The position numbers and the translations under genes are program-made. This document shows positions 37,297-50,329 of a DNA stretch of 64,000 nucleotides, in pieces; the first letter of the stretch is position 1; each line of letters starts with the position of its first letter. The stretch is from Deltaproteobacteria bacterium (GTDB lineage Bacteria > Myxococcota_A > Polyangia > GCA-2747355), in assembly GCA_020633415.1 (NCBI GenBank), contig JACKDQ010000002.1:390945-454944 (forward strand), in the 5' to 3' direction. The notes beneath the pieces were generated by a model. The model was not told the DNA's origin. It ran no database searches and saw only the letters and a program-made list of their open reading frames with translations.

Positions 37297-37731
37297 CTAG
37301 TCTACAGACGCGGAAAAAAGTCCCGTGGCGGTGCAACTGCCTGGGCCGTCTGCGGAGAAGGTCCCGCTCAGCTGTTCAAGATAGTCGGCTCGGCCGGCAA
37401 ACCGATAGGAGACCTTTCCGGCCTGCGGATCCTCTTCCTGGGTCGAAAACTCAACGCTGGACGCCGAGAGCGCGCTGCCGGCGAAGCCGAAGCCGTCGAT
37501 CGCCTCAACCAGCGCAAGCTGACCATTAGACCGGTCGTGGTGAATACGCAGCGGTTGTGACGGACCGAGCACAAACGTCCCCTGGTAGACCCGCTCAGCG
37601 CAATCACTGCGCGTTCCACTGCCGTTGATCTGCCAAATGCCGCTGAGATCAAAAACCGGCGACGTGGCGGCGATTTGGGCGCAGGCCGAGCACGTCAGCA
37701 GGGCGAACAACGATGCACGCGAGACGCTCAA
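37297..37731 (-). CDS. Small lipoprotein-like secreted protein
   Basis: (M)SVSRASLFALLTCSAC signal/lipobox. The TTG start overlaps the stop of the upstream caspase-like gene (TTGA, 37728-37731). Confidence 0.5.
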   Translation of the reverse strand: MSVSRASLFALLTCSACAQIAATSPVFDLSGIWQINGSGTRSDCAERVYQGTFVLGPSQPLRIHHDRSNGQLALVEAIDGFGFAGSALSASSVEFSTQEEDPQAGKVSYRFAGRADYLEQLSGTFSADGPGSCTATGLFSASVD

Positions 37732-39971
37732 AAGCCGACCCCCAAAGAAGCGCTTAGCCCCTGGTGAAAACGCCGTCCATTGAGACTAGCGTACATCGCA
37801 TCGTAGTCGATCACGACGAGCAGGTGCGCTGTCCAGGTGCGAAAGAACATCACGCCCAGACGACCGTAGCCGCCAAACCCGACAGCAAAATCGTCGAGCA
37901 CGCTGCTGCTGTAAGATGGCAAGACACTACCGACGACGGTGCGGTTTTCGCGCTGCTCCCAGGCCAGACGTAGACCCACACCCGCGCCAACAAACGGCGA
38001 GACCGGCCCGCGCGAGAGAAACCAGCTTGCTCCGACGTCGATCGGCACCGATCGATACTTGTCCGCGCCGGAAACGGCATCCGAGCGAAAGCCAACACGC
38101 GACTCGATAGCAAAGCGCTGCGCCTCGTAGCCTAGTGCGAGATCAACGCCCGCGCCAACGCCCGCCGGTCCGGCATAGCCGCTGCCCAGCGGGACGAAAA
38201 CGCCGAAGCGCAATAGCGCGCCCAGGCTGCCCTGACGGCGGCGCGGCTTGCGTGTCTCGTAGGCGGTAATCGTGCCGAGTTCTGCGGTCGATTCGAGTGG
38301 CTTGTTCGTGCGCAGCGCAACAACGATCCGCTGGGCGATCTCCTCGAGATCGTCGACGGTATCGACCGTCGCGCGCAGTTGTCGCGGCGGTCCGCTGGAC
38401 AAACGCGCAACGACGGCGACGATTAGCTTCTTGCCCAGACGATCGATCCGGCCAAACAACAGGCGCTCGGCCGGCCGGCGATCGGCGACGGCGCACCGCT
38501 CCGTGGCGCAAGGCGCACCCTGGATTTGGGTGACCTTGTGCTTGAACTGCGTGGAGATTTCACTGCCGAGCAGGCGACGAAACACCTGACCCACGGACGG
38601 TTCGAGCCCACTGACCACAAAGGGGAAGATCGCCCAGTCGGCCGCACCGTCGGTGGACGGCGCCACCGGCTGCCGCGCGGCGGTGGGGCGTGACGCGGGG
38701 GGCTTCGCCTCTGGCGGAAACGCAACGCTTGCCCCGCCGACGCTATCGACGTGCCCTTGGTAGTAGGCTGGCCCGAAGGGAGCGGCGAACAGTGCACCGT
38801 GAAGCGCGTAGTCGATCGCGCCACGCGAATCACTGGAACGCGCGCGCCCAACCAGCGCATCGAAATCGATCAGCGCAGCAGCGCTGGCGATCACATACTC
38901 GCGCTTCGGCGTCCGCAAGAACAGCGTACCCGTCGCTGGCAAGACCAGTGTCGACTGATATGGACCATTGAGGTGGGCCTCGATCAGGCGCTGACCATTG
39001 TCGCGCTCGATGAAAAATCGACCGAGAGTTGCCAACTTGCCGCGGAGGCGGCGCGCTTGGCGGAGGGTATCGAGGCGAATGACGGGGGCGCGTTGGTCGA
39101 TAGCGGGTGGGTGCGCGACGACGCGACTCTTCGCCCGCGGATCGGCGACTTGACGGTTGGCAGCAGCGATGAACGCCTGGACTTCACTGTACTCGATCAC
39201 CCCATCTGCGTTGACATCGGCGGCGCCGCGCAAGCCTGAGAGCAACTCGTGGGTGAACACGCCAGATTCGATTTGCGACCACTCGTGCGCTTCCTGGGTG
39301 CCCGTCGTAGCGACGATCGCCCCGACGTGCGGAAGACGAGCCAAAGAAGCCGCATCGAGCAATGCCCGCCGCTCGACACCACTGAGCGCAACGGTCCTCG
39401 CCGACGTCTCCCGGTCGAAGAGCTTGCGCGCACCGACGATCGATGCGGCGTAACAGGCATCAACGAAAACGTGAGCGACATCGGCAGGAATCAGCGCCAA
39501 CACCCGGCGATAGAGTTGCTCGCGGGTCAGCCGGCCGTCGTGCAATGCGAGGAAAGCACGTCCTTGGCGATCGCGTGCGCCGTGTCCACTATAAGCAAAA
39601 TAAAAAACGACGCGCTGGCCGGCAGCTCGCAGGCGCTTGGCTTCGCTGGCAAACTGGCGCAATGTTCGCCGCAAGGCTGCGCGAGTCGGCGGCTGACTTT
39701 GGCGCGCACGTTGCGGATAGCGAGCTTGCGTCTGGCGATCAAGCACAGCGAGCAGCACGGTCTTGACGGTAAACTGCTCAAAAAACTCTGCATAGCGTAC
39801 GGCGTCGTCATCGGCGTAGCGCAGTGCAGCGAGCGTCTTGCCCGCGTCTCCTAGAGGGGCGGCGTTGTTGCCAATGACCAAAGCCAATGCACTCACCGGT
39901 TGCTCGCTGGGTGCTGCGGCCGCCTGAGTGGCAACGAGCAACGCCGCACAGATTGCCGCCACGCGACTCAT
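37728..39971 (-). CDS. Secreted peptidase-C14 (caspase-fold) domain protein with EF-hand/dockerin-like loop and a C-terminal beta-barrel-like region ending in Phe
   Basis: Signal peptide ICAALLVATQAAAA. ALVIGNN...ALRYADDDA, FYFAYSGHGA (catalytic His context) and HVFVDACYAAS (catalytic Cys context). DVNADGVIEYSEVQAFI. The last ~200 aa are Gly/aromatic alternating strands terminating ...LGVGF. Confidence 0.7.
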   Translation of the reverse strand: MSRVAAICAALLVATQAAAAPSEQPVSALALVIGNNAAPLGDAGKTLAALRYADDDAVRYAEFFEQFTVKTVLLAVLDRQTQARYPQRARQSQPPTRAALRRTLRQFASEAKRLRAAGQRVVFYFAYSGHGARDRQGRAFLALHDGRLTREQLYRRVLALIPADVAHVFVDACYAASIVGARKLFDRETSARTVALSGVERRALLDAASLARLPHVGAIVATTGTQEAHEWSQIESGVFTHELLSGLRGAADVNADGVIEYSEVQAFIAAANRQVADPRAKSRVVAHPPAIDQRAPVIRLDTLRQARRLRGKLATLGRFFIERDNGQRLIEAHLNGPYQSTLVLPATGTLFLRTPKREYVIASAAALIDFDALVGRARSSDSRGAIDYALHGALFAAPFGPAYYQGHVDSVGGASVAFPPEAKPPASRPTAARQPVAPSTDGAADWAIFPFVVSGLEPSVGQVFRRLLGSEISTQFKHKVTQIQGAPCATERCAVADRRPAERLLFGRIDRLGKKLIVAVVARLSSGPPRQLRATVDTVDDLEEIAQRIVVALRTNKPLESTAELGTITAYETRKPRRRQGSLGALLRFGVFVPLGSGYAGPAGVGAGVDLALGYEAQRFAIESRVGFRSDAVSGADKYRSVPIDVGASWFLSRGPVSPFVGAGVGLRLAWEQRENRTVVGSVLPSYSSSVLDDFAVGFGGYGRLGVMFFRTWTAHLLVVIDYDAMYASLNGRRFHQGLSASLGVGF

Positions 39972-40624
39972 CTAACGACCTCAAGCTTTCGCGAAATGAT
40001 CGTGAAGGCGGAGCGGCTTGCGCCCTGGGTGTCACCGAGCGCGGAGCGCACGTCGTCTTGCGAGAGCGGGCGCGATGAAAGCACCCCGTAGACGGTGTAC
40101 CGTCCAGGGGGGTGATCCTTACCGATCACCACAGCGCGCGGGACGATCAACTCGCCGGCGCCGGAAAGCTGAAGACTACGTTGCGTCGCGTCAGCGGGGA
40201 AATACCAGAACGTTGTGCCCCGTGGCCCTTCGGCAACGGCGGCAAAATGGCTCCGCTGAGCGACCCCATCGAGGCGAAAGACCAAACGCGCTCCATGGCG
40301 GCAGCGCGGCACACCGCTGGCAGCAGCGGAAGCGACGCCGCAGCCTAGCCACATCGCGGGAGAGCTCGCTGTTGTCGCGCCGCGGGCTGAAAACGGTGAT
40401 GGTGAGAGCGGCTGCCGCGACAAAAGGAACAGCGGAATGGTGAGCGCCACCAGCGCCGCCGTCGCCGACCAAGCGAACCAGCGCAACAGATTGGTCTGCG
40501 AGCGCGCCGGCGCCTGGCGGGCGATCACCCGCTCGAAAACGCGCTCTTTGCGTGACACCGGCAAGCGATCGGAGCGTTGAGAGAGTAGCTGCTCAGCTCG
40601 GTCGTGATCAGCAGATGAGTCCAC
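39968..40624 (-). CDS. Putative anti-sigma factor (single-pass membrane protein)
   Basis: Positioned immediately downstream of the ECF sigma gene. One TM helix (WFAWSATAALVALTIPLFLL). Its stop overlaps the start of the caspase-like gene (ATGA, 39968-39971). Assignment is by position and topology only. Confidence 0.5.
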   Translation of the reverse strand: MDSSADHDRAEQLLSQRSDRLPVSRKERVFERVIARQAPARSQTNLLRWFAWSATAALVALTIPLFLLSRQPLSPSPFSARGATTASSPAMWLGCGVASAAASGVPRCRHGARLVFRLDGVAQRSHFAAVAEGPRGTTFWYFPADATQRSLQLSGAGELIVPRAVVIGKDHPPGRYTVYGVLSSRPLSQDDVRSALGDTQGASRSAFTIISRKLEVVR

Positions 40625-40679
40625 GCTCTATCCTACGCAGCGCCCATCGTCTTGGGTCGCAAATAATAGTGCAAGCATT

Positions 40680-41339
40680 TCAACGTGCTTTAGCTGTCGC
40701 CTGGCGGTCGGCATACGCCAGGAAGCGCAAGAACTCCTGCTTGAGACGACGATCGAGCGTACGCACGCGTCGCCGAGTGACGTCCATCGCGGCGGCGATC
40801 TGACGCTGCGGAAGCTCATCGACGAAGCGGAGGCGTACGTAGCGTGCCATCTGAGCATCTACGGTTTTGAGAAACTCATGAACGCGCCCTATGTCACGCT
40901 GCCAGGCCACTTGCTCTTCGCTTGTCAGTGGTGCGTCGGCGATCGGCGCGTCGGCGTCGATCAGCTGATCGATGTCGAGCGGCTGGTCGGTACCAAAAGT
41001 CGAAGCGGGCAATTCACGGTGTGCACCCCGCCGAAAACGATCGATCAAATAGTTCTTGGCGATACGGCGAAGGTATGGCCGAAAGGGATTGATGCCATCG
41101 TAGGCGTGTCGGGCGCGCGGCGCGAAGGCGCGAACGAAGACCTCCTGCAGCACATCGTCGAGCTCACTGGAATCGCGAATTGGTGGCAGGTAGGCATCTG
41201 AGCTCCCGCCTACGACGAAACCGCGGCGCAGCAAACGATAGATATCGTCGACGTAGTAGCGGTAGACGCGCTCAAGGGCCTCGCGTCGGCCTTCGCGAAA
41301 TGCCTTAAGCAACTGCCTATTTTCCACCAACAGGGGCAT
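40680..41339 (-). CDS. ECF-type RNA polymerase sigma-70 family factor
   Basis: Region 2 (DVLQEVFVRAF..., FRPYLRRIAKNYLIDRFRR) and region 4 HTH (VRLRFVDELPQRQIAAAMDVTRRRVRTLDRRL). Confidence 0.85.
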   Translation of the reverse strand: MPLLVENRQLLKAFREGRREALERVYRYYVDDIYRLLRRGFVVGGSSDAYLPPIRDSSELDDVLQEVFVRAFAPRARHAYDGINPFRPYLRRIAKNYLIDRFRRGAHRELPASTFGTDQPLDIDQLIDADAPIADAPLTSEEQVAWQRDIGRVHEFLKTVDAQMARYVRLRFVDELPQRQIAAAMDVTRRRVRTLDRRLKQEFLRFLAYADRQATAKAR

Positions 41340-42396: not shown

Positions 42397-42442
42397 CCCG
42401 CTGTCACACAGCCGCTCTGTCACATAGAGCCGCTCTGATAGA
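42397..42442. repeat. Three imperfect tandem 14-18-bp units (cccgctgtcaca / gccgctctgtcaca / gccgctctgataga)
   Basis: Read directly. CTGTCACA occurs at 42401 and 42417, and GCCGCTCTG at 42411 and 42429. The units lie 12-57 nt upstream of the ybgA-like start and about 135 nt upstream of the HUH gene. Confidence 0.5.
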
Positions 42443-42576
42443 TCGTTTCAGAAAACGAAAAGCGCCGATGCGTCCGCCATCCGTACCAGACGGTCCGCGT
42501 TTCGCCCGCTTCAACAACCCGACAACCCGATGTCGCAGAGTTGCGAATGGTCCAGCATTTGCTCGCGCCACCAATC

Positions 42577-43470
42577 ATGACTCGAGCCTACCCCGTAATG
42601 CCCGGTACCACCTATATGTTGACACGCCAGTGCGTGGACAGAATGTTCTTGCTTCGTCCTGACAAACACTCAAACCAGATATTCCTTTACAGTTTGGCGC
42701 GAGCAGCACGTATCAATGGAATCATTCTACATGCTGTGACGGTAATGAGCGGTCACCCACACGTGGTCTATACCGACCCACTCGGACGAGACCCAGAGTT
42801 TCGCCGCGACCTCTTCGCTCTCGTGGCTCGAGCGATCAACGCGCTACGAAAACGCAGCGGACACTGCTTTGCGATCGCCAATCACAATACAATGGTCTTG
42901 GTTGACGAGGGTGCGCAACTTGAGGCGATGGCATACGTCGCGGCTCAACCCGTCGCCGCTGGGGCCGTTCGCTACGGATACCAGTGGCCTGGAGTTCGCA
43001 GTAAGGTCGAAGAGTTCGACAAACTCCGCAGGGTCAGACGCCCCAATACATCGTTTTTCCGCAACGACACGCTGCCCGAACATGAGTCGTTGATGCTCGT
43101 TCCGCCACCGGGAATCAGGGGCGAAAAGTGGTACGTGACAGCAACGATCCGCGCCGCCATCGTAAGCGCCGAACAGAACGCGCGCGCGGCTCACGCACGA
43201 TCTGGTAGGCCATTTGAGGGGAGACGGGCCGTTCGCCGGACGAGTTGCTTTCGCCAACCCAATTCGCTGCAGCCAAGCAGGCGACTCAATCCGCGCATCA
43301 AGTGTCACGACCTAGAGCTGCGCAAAGCCGCAAAGGCAGCATTGTCGGCTTTTTGGTGCGCTTACTACGGCGCTCTCTTCGAGCTGCGTCGCGGGAATCG
43401 CACCGTTCGCTTTCCACACGGGACCTGGCGCCTTCGCGTCTACAGCGGCGTCGAGTGCGATTCAGGGTAG
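42577..43470 (+). CDS. IS200/RayT-like HUH (Y1) transposase-family protein
   Basis: GIILHAVTVMSGHPHVVYTD matches the ...ayvvMsNHvHll... HUH block. AMAYVAAQPVAAGAVRYGYQWPG matches the catalytic-Tyr block (..YI..NPV.AGLV....WP.S). The gene is lower in GC than its neighbours. Confidence 0.6.
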   Translation: MTRAYPVMPGTTYMLTRQCVDRMFLLRPDKHSNQIFLYSLARAARINGIILHAVTVMSGHPHVVYTDPLGRDPEFRRDLFALVARAINALRKRSGHCFAIANHNTMVLVDEGAQLEAMAYVAAQPVAAGAVRYGYQWPGVRSKVEEFDKLRRVRRPNTSFFRNDTLPEHESLMLVPPPGIRGEKWYVTATIRAAIVSAEQNARAAHARSGRPFEGRRAVRRTSCFRQPNSLQPSRRLNPRIKCHDLELRKAAKAALSAFWCAYYGALFELRRGNRTVRFPHGTWRLRVYSGVECDSG

Positions 43471-43729
43471 CCACCGGAATCCGTTCACCCGTCGGTACTA
43501 CCTGGCATCCGCCACTGGCGGCGTTGCGGCGTGGCCGCTAGCCCCGACTAGAGCCAAGTCTGAACCCTGACGCCTTGCCCTCGCGCCTTGGCAGCGCATC
43601 CCAGAGCGATACTTCGCCCCGGCGACGCCGAAATGCCACCAGCTGCGCGTGCGCTGCAGAAACCTCTCTGAGAGAGTCTCTGTCTTAGGACGGGGTTGTG
43701 TGTGGAACGATCTGCTATATGCTGCGGGA

Positions 43730-43939
43730 ATGAGATGGGGTGCGACGCTTCTGGGGGCGTATTGTCTTGTGGCTTTGGCAGCGTTGACCTGGCCGGTATT
43801 TCCGACGATCGCAGGAGAACCGCTGCCGCTACTGTGGGGAGTCCCGCGCAACTTATTCTATAGCGCAGCCTGGATCGTCGTGACATTTGCCGTCGGCGTG
43901 CTCTACGAAATCACCCAGCATCGGCGGCGAAAGCGATGA
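43730..43939 (+). CDS. Small membrane protein (DUF3311-like) coupled to the solute symporter
   Basis: Two TM helices in 69 aa. Its stop overlaps the symporter start (ATGA at 43936-43939). Small subunit genes of this kind typically precede SSS transporters. Confidence 0.55.
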   Translation: MRWGATLLGAYCLVALAALTWPVFPTIAGEPLPLLWGVPRNLFYSAAWIVVTFAVGVLYEITQHRRRKR

Positions 43940-45420
43940 CCTCCTCGACGGTCGTCGTGGCCATCACGCTGGCCTACCTGGTAGCAAGCTTGGTCATCGG
44001 ACTGCTCCCAGCCGGCAAGGCGAGCAGCTCAGCAACGGGATATGTGGCGGGCGACAGGTCTATGGGACTGTTGGTGATGTACTTCATCACCGGCGCGACG
44101 ATCTTCTCGGCCTTCGCCTTCCTTGGGGGCCCAGGCTGGAGCTATTCGCGCGGCGCCGCATCGTATTACATCCTCGGCTACGGAACGCTCGGCTTCCTGC
44201 CGTTCTATTTCCTCGGTCCGCGCGCCGCTCGCTTGGGTAGGCGATTTCAGTTCGTAACCCAAGCGGAGATGGTCGCCGCCCGCTACGAAATGCCCAGCCT
44301 GGCGATCACCATGGCCGCGATCAGCACCGCGGCATTCATCCCTTACCTCGCCCTACAAATCAAAGGTGCCGGGTACGTATTGAACACCGTCACCCGCGGC
44401 GGAATCAGTCAAGAGCTCGGCTCGGCGGTCGTCTACGGTGTCGTGCTGCTTTACGTCCTCAAGAGCGGCGTACTCGGCGTCGGCTGGACAAACACTTTTC
44501 AGGGCCTGCTGATGATGGCCCTGGCCTGGACACTTGGCCTCTATCTGCCCCGTCGCCTTTACGGCGGCATCGGCCCGATGTTTGCGCAAATCGCACGAGC
44601 TCGCCCCGAGCTGCTGCGTTCGCCAGGCCTCGCCTCCACTGGCCAATCTTGGGGCTGGGGCCCCTACTCTTCCGCCGTCATCGTCTCGACCGTCGGCTTC
44701 TCGGTTTGGCCACACACCTTCATGAAAGCGTTCTCGGCGCGCAGCGAGCGCACGATTCGCCGCACGGTGGTGCTCTATCCAACCTTCCAGCTCTTTCTGA
44801 TTCCGCTGTTTCTAATCGGCTATTGTGGTGTGCTCTTTGCCACCCAACCACCGCGCGCCGACCAAGTACTGCCCTTCATCCTGATGTCGCTCGACATGCC
44901 TTCGCTCGTCGTCGGCATCTTTTGCTCCGGAGCCCTCGCCGCTTCGATGTCCTCCGGAGACGCGATCGCCCACGCCGCAGCCTCGATCGTCGTACGTGAC
45001 GGATACCTCTCGCTCAGCAAGCGCACGCTCTCGCCGATTGCCGAACGGCGACTGATCCGCTACGTGGTCATCGCCGTGATGGCCACGTCCTACGCCGTCG
45101 CCGTGCTTTATCGCGGCTCACTGGTCACCCTACTGCTCTCAACTTACGGCGCAGTCGTCCAGTTCGCCCCGGCCTTGGTCGCCACCCTCTACCTCCGACG
45201 GGTCAGCGGGCGAGCACTGCTCAGCGGTCTGCTGCTCGGCGGCGCGCTCACTGGAGCCTTCGTGATCAGCCCCGATTTGCGCCCCTGGGATCTTCATCCC
45301 GGGCTGTACGGACTCACCGCGAACACCTTAACCCTCGTCATCGGCTCACTCGGCCACCGTCCGTCGCAACACGCACAGAACTACCTCGCGACCGCGGCCA
45401 CGCCCCCCGCAGAGGATTAG
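43936..45420 (+). CDS. Sodium:solute symporter (SSS) family transporter
   Basis: About 13 TM helices. N-terminal ...GYVAGDRSMG.......TGATIFSAFAFLGGPGW... is typical of the SSS family. Confidence 0.8.
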   Translation: MTSSTVVVAITLAYLVASLVIGLLPAGKASSSATGYVAGDRSMGLLVMYFITGATIFSAFAFLGGPGWSYSRGAASYYILGYGTLGFLPFYFLGPRAARLGRRFQFVTQAEMVAARYEMPSLAITMAAISTAAFIPYLALQIKGAGYVLNTVTRGGISQELGSAVVYGVVLLYVLKSGVLGVGWTNTFQGLLMMALAWTLGLYLPRRLYGGIGPMFAQIARARPELLRSPGLASTGQSWGWGPYSSAVIVSTVGFSVWPHTFMKAFSARSERTIRRTVVLYPTFQLFLIPLFLIGYCGVLFATQPPRADQVLPFILMSLDMPSLVVGIFCSGALAASMSSGDAIAHAAASIVVRDGYLSLSKRTLSPIAERRLIRYVVIAVMATSYAVAVLYRGSLVTLLLSTYGAVVQFAPALVATLYLRRVSGRALLSGLLLGGALTGAFVISPDLRPWDLHPGLYGLTANTLTLVIGSLGHRPSQHAQNYLATAATPPAED

Positions 45421-45454
45421 CCACAAATTGCCACTGGCAACGAGCGCGAGAGAG

Positions 45455-45485
45455 AATGCCTAGCGCGAGGCGTCGACCGACGATG
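45455..45485 (+). repeat. Left copy of a 31-nt direct repeat flanking the low-GC cassette
   Basis: aatgccTagCgcgaggcgtcgaccgacgaTg; 28/31 identical to 46421-46451 in the same orientation. Confidence 0.85.
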
Positions 45486-45557
45486 AGGTTGCGGTGCGTG
45501 TGCGGTTTGCGGTCGGATACTGCTACGCTCGCTTGAGGTTGGATCCGGTTGTCGTGG

Positions 45558-46331
45558 CTATCCGGCTTTCCAGTGGACCATGTCATACGGATAGTATTGC
45601 TGGTCTTGAAGGGACGAGTCGTCCAGAGCGAGGATTTTCGCCAAGGCGCCGCTTTCAAAGCTCCAGTAGCCGGAATGAACATTCGGCCTGCTCTTGTGCG
45701 AGCCGTGCCAACCTGCGTCCGAATGTCCTCTGTACCATTCCTGGGTGAGGTACTTTGCCAGGCGCCGCACGGCGCCTTCCTTGTCCGTTTGCGCCGCCGC
45801 GATGACCTCACCCGTCGCTCTATAGGGGTTTTCATGCGCGAATTCTGGGCTGTGTTTGCTGTAGCTGGAAAGTCTGTGCCGCAGCAGAAAGTCGACCAGA
45901 AAGTCGTTCAAATGACTGCCGGCAACTAATTTGCTCAATCTTTCAAAACACCGATCGTCCATCTCGAGCATGATGCCGATCGATAAGATCCAGACCATCT
46001 GAACGTATCCAGACTCCGCCTCCCAGCATTGCTCCATCATGGCAATGCTGGATTCGACGTCCTGGACCAACGACACCGGGTCGAGGCCGGATGAATATTT
46101 TGCCTTTAGCAGGCTGATTTGATCTGTCAGCAGGTCGAAATATTGGTCCCGAAGCCGCGTCGGACTCCAGTCCTCTCTTATCTCTTCCAGGTCTTCCCGG
46201 ATGTAGGCTTCGCGCTTTTCAATGATCTCCCGATAGCCTTCATAGGTATTTAGTTCATCTCTTATTTTCACTGTCACGCCATCCCCAAAGCGATTCAGGG
46301 CGAATCTGAAATCATCACCCATTTCTGCCAC
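45558..46331 (-). CDS. PoNi-like (DUF1910/DUF1911) immunity-protein candidate
   Basis: 257 aa, acidic, helical. The C-terminal block ...QEWYRGHSDAGWHGSHK....HSGYWSFESGALAKILALDDSSLQDQQYYPYDMV matches my recollection of the DUF1911 C-terminal signature (GYW.FE...DDS....YYPYDL). Not verified by search. Confidence 0.55.
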   Translation of the reverse strand: MAEMGDDFRFALNRFGDGVTVKIRDELNTYEGYREIIEKREAYIREDLEEIREDWSPTRLRDQYFDLLTDQISLLKAKYSSGLDPVSLVQDVESSIAMMEQCWEAESGYVQMVWILSIGIMLEMDDRCFERLSKLVAGSHLNDFLVDFLLRHRLSSYSKHSPEFAHENPYRATGEVIAAAQTDKEGAVRRLAKYLTQEWYRGHSDAGWHGSHKSRPNVHSGYWSFESGALAKILALDDSSLQDQQYYPYDMVHWKAG

Positions 46332-46420
46332 ATCATTAGTTTTCTGAACACCCTCCCACTTGCAGCCACGCCGCCGCAGCGGATTTACCGCAAACTGCCC
46401 CTGTCACAGAGCGCATATGA

Positions 46421-46451
46421 AATGCCCAGAGCGAGGCGTCGACCGACGACG
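46421..46451 (+). repeat. Right copy of the 31-nt direct repeat
   Basis: aatgccCagAgcgaggcgtcgaccgacgaCg; see 45455-45485. Confidence 0.85.
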
Positions 46452-46470
46452 CGCTGCCAGCCGAGACAGG

Positions 46471-48192
46471 TCACAGCGCAGGCGAGTCGTCGCCCAACAG
46501 CACCCGGCGGGTCACCGAAATCGGCGCCGACCCGCAACAGCCGAGGAACTGATCGTGGAAGCGACGCTCCGAGTATGCTGCACCCAACTTCTTGCGATAG
46601 TCGTCGCGCAACTTGACGATCATCAACTTGCCCAGGGTGTAGCTCAAGTACATCGGATCGAAAGTTCCGCGTCGCGCCTGCTGCATCGCGCTCGCCTCGT
46701 CGGTGAACGCCTTCGTGCGAAACAGTTCAGCGGCTTGCTCGACCGTCATTCCTTCGGTATGCAAACCGATCGCCGCAACAAACCGCACGTTTCGCAACAG
46801 CGCGTTGAGCAGCTGACCAATTCGCACCTTCGGGTCACCATCCAGCCCGTGTTGGAGCATCAACTCCTCGGCATAATGCGCCCACCCCTCACCGCGCGCG
46901 TAGCCGCCAAAGCTCTTGAGGATCGCGGAATGCTGCTGTTTCCCATGAAGATGATCGAGGAAATGCCCCGGCCACAGCTCGTGTGCTGTCACGAACAACA
47001 AATCGACCGTCGCCGGCAGATACTGCTTTTGTTGCGCGATCGGCCAACTCGGGTCGGGCGGACTGATGTAGTAAAATGATGGCAACGCCTTCGTTTCGAA
47101 CGGGCCGGCGCTATCGAGGAACGCCGAATTCCAGCGCATGAACGCCGGCGTCGCTCGCACCTCAACCACGTCATCACTCGGGATCGACACCACATTGCGC
47201 GCAACGAGTAGTTTGCGCAGCCGCGCCCCTTGCGCAGTCGCGATAGCATAGGCCTGCTCCGCACTGCTCGGCCGTTCGGCGCTCACCACGGCGATCAGCT
47301 CAGCCACCGACTTTTTCGGGTCGATCTGCCGACAAGCTACGGTCAGCGCTTCGAGGTTGCGCGCCAAGTCACGCTTCGCGACATCCTTCAGTCGCTCCAA
47401 CGAAACCTTGACGCCTTGCGTTTCGGCCAACATCCGCAGAAACACTGCCTTACCGATGGCAAAGTCATCGGTCGCCAACTGCTGCCGCCGTTCGAGAAAT
47501 GCAGCATGTTCTTTCAGCTGTTCGCGCCAGCCCGCCAACGCTTGGCGCAGTTGATCGGCTAGCGCACTGGGCAAGTCGCCCAACGCCCTCGGCACATCAC
47601 TGGCGAAGGCCTGCAAGCCCTTGGTTTGGATCAACGCCACGCTCAGCCACGATCGCGGCATCCGCTCTGCCAGATTCGCACGCGCCTGAGCCAGATAAGC
47701 CGGCGTCGCCCTGGTCAAGGCGATGATCGCCCGCGCCCGCTCGGCTGCCGACGCGTAAGGACGCGCCACGTACGACACCAAGCTCAGCGGCGACGTGTAG
47801 TACATCGGATTCTTCCACGGCGCCTTCAACTCGCTCAGCACGAATAGTTCCCGATTGATCGTCGACAGCATCACCGCCCGCTCAATCAGCTGCGTTTGGG
47901 TCAACGCCGTCTCAGCAAGCGCGCCGAGTTCTGCGCGACGACGCTGCAAGCGAGCGATCTCGGTTTGCAGGGCGCGTGGACTGACGTCGGGCAACCGCCC
48001 ATCAAACCTGTGCAGTCCCAGCTCGACGGCCTCATGAGGGTTCGCGGCCAGCTGTTCGCGATAGGCGCTTTCGAGCAGCTGCGCCGCATCGGTTTGCTTT
48101 AGCACCGCCAAACGCTCTGCCCTAGGTCGACAACCAACCGACTGCAGAGCGCTGAGGGCCGTTAGAATTAGCACCAAGAGAATGCGCATCAT
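46471..48192 (-). CDS. DUF885-family lipoprotein (putative metallopeptidase)
   Basis: Lipobox ALQSVGC. HELWPGH (HExxH-like) and the overall DUF885 pattern (...YYISPP..., ...GEGWAHYAEELM...). Confidence 0.75.
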   Translation of the reverse strand: MMRILLVLILTALSALQSVGCRPRAERLAVLKQTDAAQLLESAYREQLAANPHEAVELGLHRFDGRLPDVSPRALQTEIARLQRRRAELGALAETALTQTQLIERAVMLSTINRELFVLSELKAPWKNPMYYTSPLSLVSYVARPYASAAERARAIIALTRATPAYLAQARANLAERMPRSWLSVALIQTKGLQAFASDVPRALGDLPSALADQLRQALAGWREQLKEHAAFLERRQQLATDDFAIGKAVFLRMLAETQGVKVSLERLKDVAKRDLARNLEALTVACRQIDPKKSVAELIAVVSAERPSSAEQAYAIATAQGARLRKLLVARNVVSIPSDDVVEVRATPAFMRWNSAFLDSAGPFETKALPSFYYISPPDPSWPIAQQKQYLPATVDLLFVTAHELWPGHFLDHLHGKQQHSAILKSFGGYARGEGWAHYAEELMLQHGLDGDPKVRIGQLLNALLRNVRFVAAIGLHTEGMTVEQAAELFRTKAFTDEASAMQQARRGTFDPMYLSYTLGKLMIVKLRDDYRKKLGAAYSERRFHDQFLGCCGSAPISVTRRVLLGDDSPAL

Positions 48193-48247
48193 GGACTGCG
48201 ATTAGCCCGCAGCCCGGCGACTTGTCAACCGCACTCGCGCCGCAGCC

Positions 48248-50329
48248 TCAATCGCTCGCCCGATAGAGGTAAATAGCTGGCGTCCCGAGGACGCGTACCA
48301 CGTGCGCCTGGCGATACGCAGCATCGCTCAACGAATCACGTCGAATCCGCCAGCGCGCGCCGGCAGATCGCAGCGCCAGATCCTTGGGTAACTGCACCAG
48401 GTGATCGACCGACTGCAGCTCGATCGCCACACTATCGCCGGGCTCGGCGTAGCGCTTCAGATAGTCAAACGCGCGCTTGACCCCTTCACCTTGGGCGAGA
48501 TCAGCAGCGCGCAGATCCCGACCGGCGAAGCTGGCCAGCGTGTTGCGAAATAGATGGTAGTACGGGTGGACCAATGCCCCAGCGAAGACGATCCCCACCA
48601 CGATCGCACAGCTCAGCAGGGTGCGGATCGGCCGACGCGATGCCGAGCGCCGCAGAACACTCGCCAAAAATCCAGCAACGTCATCGATGCCCACTGCTGC
48701 AAGCAGCAACACCGCGGGTAGCGCCAACGCGCCACAGGTCGCGCTTGCCGCGGGCTCCCAGACCGACAAGCCCATGACGACCGCGAGCCAGCAGATCAGC
48801 ACATTTCGGCCAAATGCAGCACCATCGGACCGCGTCGGGAGAGCCTCAGCCCGTGGCCGCTGCAACATCCGAACGAGCCCTACCCCAAAACCCAACAGCG
48901 CAAAGGCGAGCACGGGAAGCGCCGTGTGGAAGCTCAGCTGCTCCCACGCAGGTCGGCCCTGCGCCAAGCCGATATCGTTTGCCAAGCCGCCGAGCGACAA
49001 CACCGTACAGCCAGCAACAAAGGGCAACGCGATCAGTGTCGCCGGCAACCGCAGAAAACGTTGCTCCACGAGCTGACGTGCAACCGTCGCGACAAACAGC
49101 GTGCAAGCCAAAGCAGCCAGCGTCGCGCCACTGCGCCAAAGCACCAGGCAAGCACCGATCACCACCCCGGCCAGAAGATGACGCGCACTATTTTCCGACC
49201 AGCGCCGCAACGCATTGGCAACGCATAGCACACCGATCCACATGGCAAGCACGGTGAGCGGAAATCCGCTGACGACTTGACCGAGCGCGATCTGCTCCGG
49301 CGCAACCGCAGCGATCGCGGCCGCAATCAGCGCTATCGGTCGATCGAGCTGCGTCCAACCAAACACGAAAATTACCGCAACCAGTGCCGACGAGGTCAGC
49401 GCAGAAGCCCAGCGCGCCGAGAGAACCGACGCGTCAGCCGCCAGCGCGTCGAGGAAATACGGCACAAGCGACGCCGCCTGCAAGTGATCGCTCAGCGCCA
49501 GCCAGTCCCCGCTGACCCAAGACAGCAAGCTGCTGCGCGCTTCAGCAAGTGCGCGCCCTTCGAAGGCAAGCACTTCCAAGTCGGATGCCGTCCAAAGTCG
49601 CAGAACCAACGCTGTACCGACCAGCAATATGCCACCGACAACCATCGGTGTCGTCGGTGAGCGACGGCCAAACCCGCGGAGCGCTTGCTGCAGCGCCTGG
49701 CGCCCCACAACCAGCAGTACCAGCAGTACCAGCAGTAATCCGCCGAGAACCAGCTGATACAGCATCGTCGCCTGGCGTTTCCCTCCCTGGGCAGCCGCCC
49801 GCTGCGAGAGATACACGTCGGCCATCGTCAGCGGCATCGGTGGCATACCGCTACCGACCCGTGTCCAAAACAACCGCGCTGCCCCCCCAGTTACCGGCTG
49901 ACGCCAAATCAGCGCGTGAGCCCCCTGACGCAACGAGAACCGATAGCGTCCAGGGCTGGCGAGTTGCCCCGCTGCGCCATCGATCGTCAGCACGCCTGGG
50001 GCAGCAAAGTCGTACACTCCGCTTCGCGGCGCGAAGATCGCCGTTCGCCAGAGCAACGTCGCCGCCCCAGTCAAACGACCGCGAATCAAACGTCGGTCCG
50101 GGGCGGGGCGCGGTCCAAGCTGCTGCGCCTCGCCCTGCGCATCCACCAGCAGCAGCTCGGCACCGTTGTACGCCAGCGATGTACGCAGGCGATAGACCAG
50201 CGTCACCAACACCACGAAGGCGAACAGCAGGACGGCCAGATCGACCAGCCAAGCTCGCCCGCGATGCAGATGTTCCCGCCCGCCCTGCAGATCTTCCCGC
50301 CCGCCCTGTAGATGTTCCCGATCGTTCAC
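48248..50329 (-). CDS. Large polytopic membrane protein, possibly a GT-C (ArnT/PMT-like) glycosyltransferase
   Basis: An N-terminal TM, then a ~130-aa extracytoplasmic segment, at least 10 TM helices and a soluble C-terminal domain. The family call rests on topology only. Confidence 0.45.
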   Translation of the reverse strand: MNDREHLQGGREDLQGGREHLHRGRAWLVDLAVLLFAFVVLVTLVYRLRTSLAYNGAELLLVDAQGEAQQLGPRPAPDRRLIRGRLTGAATLLWRTAIFAPRSGVYDFAAPGVLTIDGAAGQLASPGRYRFSLRQGAHALIWRQPVTGGAARLFWTRVGSGMPPMPLTMADVYLSQRAAAQGGKRQATMLYQLVLGGLLLVLLVLLVVGRQALQQALRGFGRRSPTTPMVVGGILLVGTALVLRLWTASDLEVLAFEGRALAEARSSLLSWVSGDWLALSDHLQAASLVPYFLDALAADASVLSARWASALTSSALVAVIFVFGWTQLDRPIALIAAAIAAVAPEQIALGQVVSGFPLTVLAMWIGVLCVANALRRWSENSARHLLAGVVIGACLVLWRSGATLAALACTLFVATVARQLVEQRFLRLPATLIALPFVAGCTVLSLGGLANDIGLAQGRPAWEQLSFHTALPVLAFALLGFGVGLVRMLQRPRAEALPTRSDGAAFGRNVLICWLAVVMGLSVWEPAASATCGALALPAVLLLAAVGIDDVAGFLASVLRRSASRRPIRTLLSCAIVVGIVFAGALVHPYYHLFRNTLASFAGRDLRAADLAQGEGVKRAFDYLKRYAEPGDSVAIELQSVDHLVQLPKDLALRSAGARWRIRRDSLSDAAYRQAHVVRVLGTPAIYLYRASD
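50257..50319. repeat. Three tandem 21-bp units at the 5' end of the membrane-protein gene
   Basis: gcccgcgatgcagatgttccc / gcccgccctgcagatcttccc / gcccgccctgtagatgttccc, encoding REHLQGG-REDLQGG-REHLHRG on the minus strand. Confidence 0.85.

Follow-up and report, generated by a model that had tools for sequence, protein, structure and literature searches.

An apparently orphan PoNi-family immunity gene beside a duplicated gene end in a Myxococcota-type genome

A metagenome-assembled genome of a Deltaproteobacteria bacterium (a Myxococcota-type host) carries a lone gene for a PoNi-family immunity protein, set between two convergent genes and bracketed by imperfect direct repeats. On balance, we read this locus as an old horizontal acquisition of a single orphan PoNi gene, flanked by a duplicated-target integration scar of ~100 nt. 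It is an ordinary find that reveals no new system. It does add a clear case of a PoNi orphan in Myxococcota, a high-GC lineage of predatory or social habit that is distant from the low-GC bacteria of guts and insects in which its relatives and their toxins are found; and the ~100-nt duplicated gene end is a readable footprint of the entry of a foreign single gene into a housekeeping region, from which, with closer relatives, it could be learned how such genes get captured. The window referred to throughout is the whole 64-kb stretch of DNA that was analysed, and all coordinates are positions within it.

The PoNi gene and its neighbourhood

The insertion spot lies between the convergent genes for an SSS-family transporter and a DUF885 protein. 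From left to right the order is SSS (rightward), a left repeat made of its tail, spacer and core, 74 nt, PoNi (leftward), 14 nt, a right repeat made of a pseudo-tail, spacer and core, 21 nt, and DUF885 (leftward):

43936..45420, plus strand: gene for an SSS-family sodium:solute symporter (Pfam SSF, E=2.5e-27), its last 9-15 codons inside the left repeat
45378..45483, plus strand: left repeat copy, ~106 nt and imperfect, holding the 31-mer and the core (Smith-Waterman, blastn)
45484..45557, plus strand: 74-nt spacer from the left repeat to the PoNi stop codon, G/T-rich on the plus strand and host-like in GC (0.61)
45558..46331, minus strand: orphan PoNi-family immunity gene (PoNi_N and PoNi_C domains)
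46332..46345, no strand: 14 nt of low-GC DNA (0.21, by composition) from the start of the longest PoNi ORF to the right repeat
46346..46449, plus strand: right repeat copy, holding the 31-mer at 46421-46451 and the core (Smith-Waterman, blastn)
46450..46470, no strand: 21 nt from the right repeat to the DUF885 stop codon, where similarity to the left side ends sharply
46471..48192, minus strand: DUF885 gene, directly upstream of PoNi on the same strand (Pfam DUF885, E=8e-84)
48227..48250, minus strand: 24-nt sequence from the stop codon of a 693-aa gene upstream of DUF885, an inverted match to 45484-45507

An independent Logan assembly (SRR12358676) covers the entire locus in 7.4 kb, at 99.99% identity. 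A contig from another sample (SRR17907852), which has 99.3% identity and an in-frame indel of 3 nt in the SSS tail, crosses the left repeat and reaches the junction on the insert side; fragments of the same species from other samples either show the occupied state or end short of the site. The nearest homologues of the flanking genes are 57% identical for DUF885 (the next 54%) and 69% for SSS (others 67% and 65%), and no downstream synteny is shared with the loci of these nearest homologues. As a side observation, positions 45484-45507, with which the insert begins, match 48250-48227 in inverted orientation at 21/24 positions (E=0.008, four queries); chance, a 3'-UTR motif common to both places or templated filler DNA could explain this.

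The sequence-only reading of this stretch had proposed that the enclosed gene is PoNi/DUF1911-like, and the Pfam check bears this out, with matches to both PoNi_N (PF08928, E=2.1e-18, 67 bits against a cut-off of 22.4) and PoNi_C (PF08929, E=3.8e-32, 111.7 bits against a cut-off of 25). The protein is full length, keeps 45/45 invariant columns in an alignment with 10 homologues, and has distant matches to solved structures of proteins described as 'DUF1911 domain-containing protein'. Characterised PoNi binds and specifically neutralises PoNe, a PD-(D/E)xK DNase domain that is delivered by T5SS, T6SS and T7SS (Jana et al. 2019, PMC6688995); by analogy, the protein described here is predicted to bind and block, presumably, a PoNe-type PD-(D/E)xK DNase toxin of competitors, one that its own cell would not produce.

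The GenBank record of the protein (MCB9555568.1) has 254 aa and an ATG start at 46322. The starts of homologues line up with in-frame GTG codons at 46277 and 46271, and no clean Shine-Dalgarno sequence was found for the annotated start; the N-terminal extension of ~20 residues in the annotated protein probably reflects a mis-called start codon. If the GTG at 46271 is the true start, then 46272-46331 together with the adjoining 14 nt form a low-GC (0.46) 5' flank. A search of the minus strand in the interval between DUF885 and PoNi found no sigma-70-like promoter, and PoNi is probably transcribed from or together with DUF885, possibly by read-through.

About 90% of PoNe genes have a PoNi gene immediately downstream, while some PoNi genes may be orphans, as their discoverers anticipated (PMC6688995). 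At the locus described here, the gene upstream of PoNi on the same strand is DUF885 and not a PoNe-domain toxin. The earlier claim that the window holds no cognate toxin is likewise upheld: Pfam and NCBIfam scans of all large ORFs in the 64-kb window detected no toxin, T6SS, Rhs, phage or integrase genes, and the ORFs are of a housekeeping kind (GH57, GGDEF, ParA, Hsp70-like, UDPGP, H+-PPase and dCTP deaminase among others, as well as a PilT-type ATPase, a caspase-domain protein, an ECF sigma factor, FeoAB and Lon). Profile HMMs of toxin tails (170 and 32 positions, from 15 and 10 neighbour tails) matched the locus in no frame. Because DUF885 lies upstream and the window contains neither a toxin nor a remnant of one, PoNi is an orphan, not a cognate, immunity gene within the 64-kb window. 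One candidate remnant, a toxin tail upstream of PoNi, was rejected; the extra N-terminal residues resembled the pattern ...YKLDKDGKI..WP* by eye, and the profile HMMs were negative.

The sequence-only reading had also described the gene as clearly lower than its neighbours in GC and in its codon endings, of which the first part holds and the second applies only modestly. The GC of the PoNi ORF (0.531) is the lowest of the 41 genes in the window (mean 0.617, z=-3.8), whereas its GC3 is third lowest of 41 (0.647 vs a mean of 0.722, z=-1.8). The deficit lies mainly at codon positions 1 and 2, with a GC2 (0.380) that is the lowest in the window, and thus reflects amino-acid composition.

The nearest homologue of the protein is 62% identical and is encoded on a metagenome contig of 43% GC, by a gene with a GC3 of 0.48; the next ones, at ~50% identity, come from Snodgrassella, Apibacter, Chryseobacterium and Prevotella. 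The gene for the nearest homologue sits 20 nt 3' of a gene with the C-terminal PD-(D/E)xK-like pattern GIDGIY...VIDEAKY...WP*, and such a pairing of toxin tail and PoNi was seen in 15 of the 40 related loci examined; Pfam models gave no match for the toxins neighbouring the PoNi relatives, a family with the pattern GNxGE...GIDGIYEN...VIDE[AV]KY...WP*. Homologues also occur on plasmids and in a few phages. When the DNA of the whole cassette was compared with plasmids, just the conserved C-terminal coding part of PoNi matched, at ~70% identity, to Bacteroides plasmids. PoNi has been found to move horizontally alone, even into gut fungi (bioRxiv 10.1101/2020.10.15.341461). The gene in the present host is foreign, acquired horizontally from a lower-GC lineage.

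Extent and anatomy of the repeat pair

Two 31-nt direct repeats, at 45455-45485 and 46421-46451, had been reported as 28/31 identical and as enclosing 935 bp with one gene; we obtained the same coordinates and the same count, and there is one real ORF within the 935 bp. The exact core common to both 31-mers has 19 nt, GCGAGGCGTCGACCGACGA, and occupies 45465-45483 on the left and 46431-46449 on the right. With up to 3 mismatches allowed, the 31-mer has just two copies in the 64-kb window, and dinucleotide-shuffled sequence gave zero matches to it.

The 31-mer is real, yet its description missed most of the repeat, which has an extent of ~100 nt and includes the end of the SSS gene. A flank-to-flank alignment extends the similarity ~60-75 nt leftward of the 31-mer. 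By Smith-Waterman, 45394-45483 aligns with 46362-46449 at 80% identity over 91 columns, with a score of 84 compared to 21 +/- 2.8 for shuffles; a more permissive blastn search pairs 45378-45483 with 46346-46449 over 106 nt at 75.5% identity (E=2.7e-16), and found no third copy of the ~106-nt repeat in the 64-kb window. The true repeat is about 90-106 nt long, the 31-mer being merely its best-preserved end, and with this length, rather than 31 nt, it overlaps the SSS 3' end and stop codon (45418-45420). The practical lesson is that a short 'att-like' repeat noticed by eye should first be extended by alignment and only then interpreted.

The left copy spans the last 9-15 SSS codons, the stop codon and 63 nt of downstream spacer. 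In the SSS frame it encodes QNYLATAATPPAED*, and it retains, as YLATAA, the C-terminal [FY]L.[TV]A motif of SSS homologues. The right copy reads LNTLPLAATPP, after which the frame is lost through a 1-nt deletion, and it has no stop codon; with this frameshift and its non-conservative changes relative to the SSS tail, it is a degenerate, non-functional relic of SSS tail and spacer. Mismatches between the right and left copies in the coding part are distributed over the three codon positions as 3/3/5. The third-position bias that would indicate an orthologous origin of the pseudo-tail is thus absent.

Similarity between the left and right sides ends sharply just 3' of the 19-nt core. A perfect 19-nt run precisely at the edge of the alignment has a probability of P=0.018, while the same run, taken as the longest perfect run with its position left free, is unremarkable (P=0.16); the difference in identity between the core-proximal and the distal part of the repeat is not significant (Fisher P=0.10). 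Overall, the copies have diverged by 20-25%. Because of this divergence, a GC3 near the host level and an intact ORF, the acquisition seems to be old, and the gene does not appear to be recently or currently mobile. Copy divergence and ameliorated GC3 are what would date the event, while the intact ORF suggests that PoNi has been kept by selection.

We also looked for signs of a recombination system at the repeats. Neither copy, on either strand, folds into a hairpin (z of -1.6 to +0.7 vs shuffled sequence), the self-complementarity of the 31-mer is 8/31 with no dyad symmetry, and the ends of the insert carry no terminal inverted repeats. Searches at the repeats for Rfam families, tRNA genes, sigma-70 promoters and intrinsic terminators gave no hits. 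Among 185,579 species genomes, the 19-nt core has 66 exact matches, one each in unrelated GC-rich genomes, which we ascribe to chance because they are single, have flanks at background identity and show no extension. Exact searches, in which diverged sites can be missed, returned 0 matches for a 29-mer in JGI metagenome contigs and 0 for the 19-mer core in IMG/VR. Of the readings that had been offered for the repeats, insertion with target duplication remains the best, and the repeats are taken as an integration scar, not as an active recombination site. An att-like or cassette-recombination site of an undescribed kind finds no support: there is a single pair, with neither structure nor a recombinase and with no occurrence beyond the locus, and the 20-25% divergence argues for an old, fixed event.

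How the gene may have arrived

We suggest that a PoNi gene from a lower-GC lineage entered the short spacer that separates the convergent SSS and DUF885 genes. The incoming DNA would have been circular and would have carried a look-alike of the SSS tail and spacer that served as target. A Campbell-type single crossover, with the exchange in or beside the 19-nt identical core, would then leave SSS with its functional end on the left, while the copy on the right decays as a pseudo-end; the agent may have been an integrase or RecA. The event would be old, and PoNi would now be a fixed chromosomal gene under selection. An empty site would read ...GGCGTCGACCGACGA joined directly to CGCGCTGCCAGCCGAG....

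Campbell-type integration seems to us the most likely mechanism because the copies are in direct orientation, the 19-nt core lies at the edge of the similarity (P=0.018), and similarity is present on one side of the core only. Our searches yielded no empty site, no donor element and no circular form of the cassette. Another point against the model is that a circle would have gained its look-alike of the SSS tail by having resided earlier at this site in a relative. Moreover, since the parts of the repeat near to and far from the core do not differ significantly in identity (P=0.10), a duplication that was once perfect and has decayed evenly fits equally well.

Such a duplication is the basis of the best-surviving alternative, in which a foreign fragment was captured at a staggered break: nicks ~100 nt apart were filled in, in an NHEJ-like manner, and the resulting perfect duplication decayed evenly. 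The insert contains little besides the ORF (14-68 nt upstream of PoNi, 74 nt downstream of it), as such a capture could produce; the mismatches are statistically compatible with uniform decay, the 24-nt junction resembles nearby inverted sequence in the manner of templated filler DNA, and no recombinase is present in the window. On the other hand, the filler match is weak at E=0.008 with four queries, and the perfect 19-nt block sits precisely at the junction edge (P=0.018). A target duplication of ~100 nt would also be far larger than bacterial insertions usually produce, which counts against this route. Considering the free-position value for the run (P=0.16) together with the absence of a significant gradient (P=0.10), fill-in at a staggered break remains a serious rival, if a rather improbable one.

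We consider it unlikely that the locus instead arose by homology-facilitated replacement, in which linear DNA of a related strain already carried PoNi 3' of SSS. Recombination would have taken place within or upstream of SSS, followed by an illegitimate join 15 codons before the stop codon of the recipient SSS, so that the right copy would be the displaced tail of the recipient. This course of events would account for a right copy that is contiguous with the native DUF885 flank and equals a decayed SSS tail, the 75-80% identity is as expected of the orthologous tails and spacers of related species, and one step suffices in the host genome. However, the original insertion is only pushed back into some other donor, searches turned up no relative in which PoNi lies next to SSS, and the coding differences lack the third-position bias (3/3/5).

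Doubtful, too, is an origin as a CIME-like remnant, in which an integrase placed an island at the SSS 3' end and everything except PoNi, attL and attR was later deleted. CIMEs are decayed integrative elements that retain attL and attR (PMC5704250). The locus resembles them in its imperfect direct repeats, which include the 3' end of the target gene, and in the absence of integration genes, and PoNi genes do travel on plasmids and phages. Repeats that overlap a target 3' end where integration genes are missing cannot, however, by themselves separate a CIME from other duplication scars. The locus differs from a CIME in comprising just ~0.86 kb and one gene; no intact relative or related integrase is known, and nothing indicates that it has been mobilised. 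Its formation would have needed deletions that cut back to the ORF from either side and yet spared both att sites; there is no integrase or other island gene left in the window, and viral contigs and reference genomes gave no attP-like match.

Far less probable is an active, undescribed system of single-gene cassettes whose 31-nt sites are recombined in trans. One gene bracketed by direct repeats is what such a system would look like, and orphan immunity genes do occupy integron-like arrays in Bacteroidales, known as rAID-1 (Ross et al., bioRxiv 10.1101/471110). The present repeat, by contrast, has two copies in 64 kb, no hairpin, dyad symmetry or recombinase, and a core that gave chance matches alone in 185,579 genomes and nothing in contigs of viruses or metagenomes. 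The copies differ by 20-25%, one of them is a pseudo gene end, and GC3 is nearly ameliorated. It would take a considerable stretch to see in the 19-31-nt core the target of a trans-acting, site-specific recombinase that is encoded elsewhere in the genome and shuttles promoterless single immunity genes into the 3' ends of Myxococcota housekeeping genes; if this were true, it would amount to a dispersed integron-like or rAID-like acquisition without a local integrase. An integron-like or rAID-like reading failed on each of the features that were checked.

That the arrangement is an assembly artefact or a chance repeat, as its source in a metagenome-assembled genome might suggest, is barely credible, because the same layout is repeated in the independent Logan assembly and the left junction recurs, with strain-level differences, in a different sample; the repeat has E=2.7e-16, and an exact identity of 19 nt is too short to mislead assemblers.

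Comparison with known systems

As a member of the PoNi family, the protein is typical: it is full length, carries the two Pfam domains and lacks none of the invariant residues, and its nearest relatives are encoded directly 3' of PD-(D/E)xK-type toxin genes. It differs in that no toxin is adjacent or present in the 64-kb window, and in its host, which is a high-GC Myxococcota-type MAG, whereas all close relatives belong to low-GC Bacteroidota, Snodgrassella or Bacillota.

With the AID and rAID-1 systems the locus shares a toxin-less immunity gene, a skewed GC, horizontal acquisition and a presumed role in protection from the toxins of neighbours. The criteria for rAID-1 are a 5' XerD-like recombinase, at least 2 co-directional low-GC genes and repetitive intergenic sequences (bioRxiv 10.1101/471110). 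The PoNi locus, in contrast, consists of a single gene with no array, no XerD-like recombinase and no family of repeated intergenic motifs, and it lies in a housekeeping neighbourhood, not on a mobile element.

Integron cassettes have an attC site, an imperfect palindrome, at their boundary and are handled by the IntI integrase. One promoterless-looking ORF between repeated sites is reminiscent of this arrangement; the difference is that there is no attC-like palindrome (fold z about 0), no IntI and no array, and that the 'site' copies the end of a neighbouring gene. Insertions of transposons and IS elements are characterised by terminal inverted repeats, a transposase and a short (2-15 bp) target duplication, and here the insert has neither the inverted repeats nor a transposase, and the duplication is ~100 nt. 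The dif/Xer sites used by IMEX elements have 28 nt with partially palindromic XerC and XerD arms; at a self-complementarity of just 8/31, the 31-mer is without the dyad symmetry of a dif site, and the cumulative GC skew across the region is monotonic.

Lastly, REP/RayT repeats are palindromic units with many genomic copies that often flank a RayT gene. The repeat differs from these in having no hairpin and two copies in the window, neither of which adjoins the RayT-like ORF at 42541-43470. This ORF, the only element-like gene in the window, is itself a weak match (29 bits, with a cut-off of 80) and is not associated with the repeat.

PoNi relatives and the start of PoNi

At 15 of 40 related loci (L072, at 2-655; L081, L082, L083, L085, L087, L099, L115, L130, L138, L140, L145 and L151-L153), the gene upstream of PoNi carries a conserved putative toxin C-terminal domain. 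The domain follows the pattern ...NKQKGNxGE...GIDGIYEN...VIDE[AV]KY...QMSDxW...WP*, has a PD-(D/E)xK-like signature and ends in WP in every case; no Pfam model matches it. We consider it likely that this is the PoNe DNase toxin domain, or a PoNe-like domain not covered by Pfam.

On the minus strand (region 46271-46331), PoNi is annotated from an ATG at 46322, and its longest ORF opens with a GTG at 46331. About 20 N-terminal residues from the annotated start are absent from every homologue; the homologues begin at the position of two in-frame GTGs, 46277 and 46271, which are preceded by a Shine-Dalgarno-like GGGGA. The true protein is probably 237-239 aa long, as in the nearest relatives.

The SSS tail and a probable small partner gene

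In the same-species strain of another sample, SRR17907852 (fragment L068), the proline-rich tail of the sodium:solute symporter (SSS) is 3 nt shorter through an in-frame deletion, GCCACGCCCCCC vs GCCGCCCCC (L068:820-830 vs window 45397-45408), which falls within the left repeat copy. On this evidence the SSS tail is prone to indels and under weak constraint. The SSS gene is preceded by:

43649-43939, plus strand: small membrane ORF, 4-nt overlap with the SSS start

This ORF probably encodes the partner subunit, DUF3311; its Pfam match has an E-value of only 0.17. An equivalent small gene lies ahead of SSS in all relatives examined (L073-L077), where the pair is the only synteny conserved around the locus.

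Inverted 24-nt pair

Two 24-nt stretches, 21/24 identical, form an inverted pair (blastn E=0.008):

45484-45507, plus strand: arm 1, adjoining the left repeat core and made up of the insert's first 24 nt
48227-48250, minus strand: arm 2, from the TGA stop of a 693-aa gene into the spacer before DUF885

PoNi, the right repeat copy and DUF885 are all enclosed by the two arms. The gene for the 693-aa membrane protein is separated from DUF885 by 55 nt; this spacer (48190-48255, minus strand) folds into a hairpin of -31.5 kcal/mol, better than shuffles (z=-2.3).

Other neighbouring genes

42541-43470, plus strand: RayT-like ORF, 309 aa, with an NCBIfam NF047646 match and an HPH motif
37728-41339, minus strand: caspase-domain (Peptidase_C14) protein, 747 aa, then a 218-aa protein of unknown family

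The match of the 309-aa ORF to NF047646 (REP-associated tyrosine transposase, RayT) is weak (E=8e-07; its score of 29 bits falls short of the required 80), and Pfam gives none. GC is low (0.53) in its 5' region, and a little upstream, at 42401-42437, lie 2.2 copies of an 18-nt tandem repeat unit (CTGTCACAACAGCCGCT). The Peptidase_C14 and 218-aa genes overlap by 4 nt and adjoin an ECF sigma factor; the pair may constitute a signalling or defence-type module, separate from the PoNi finding.
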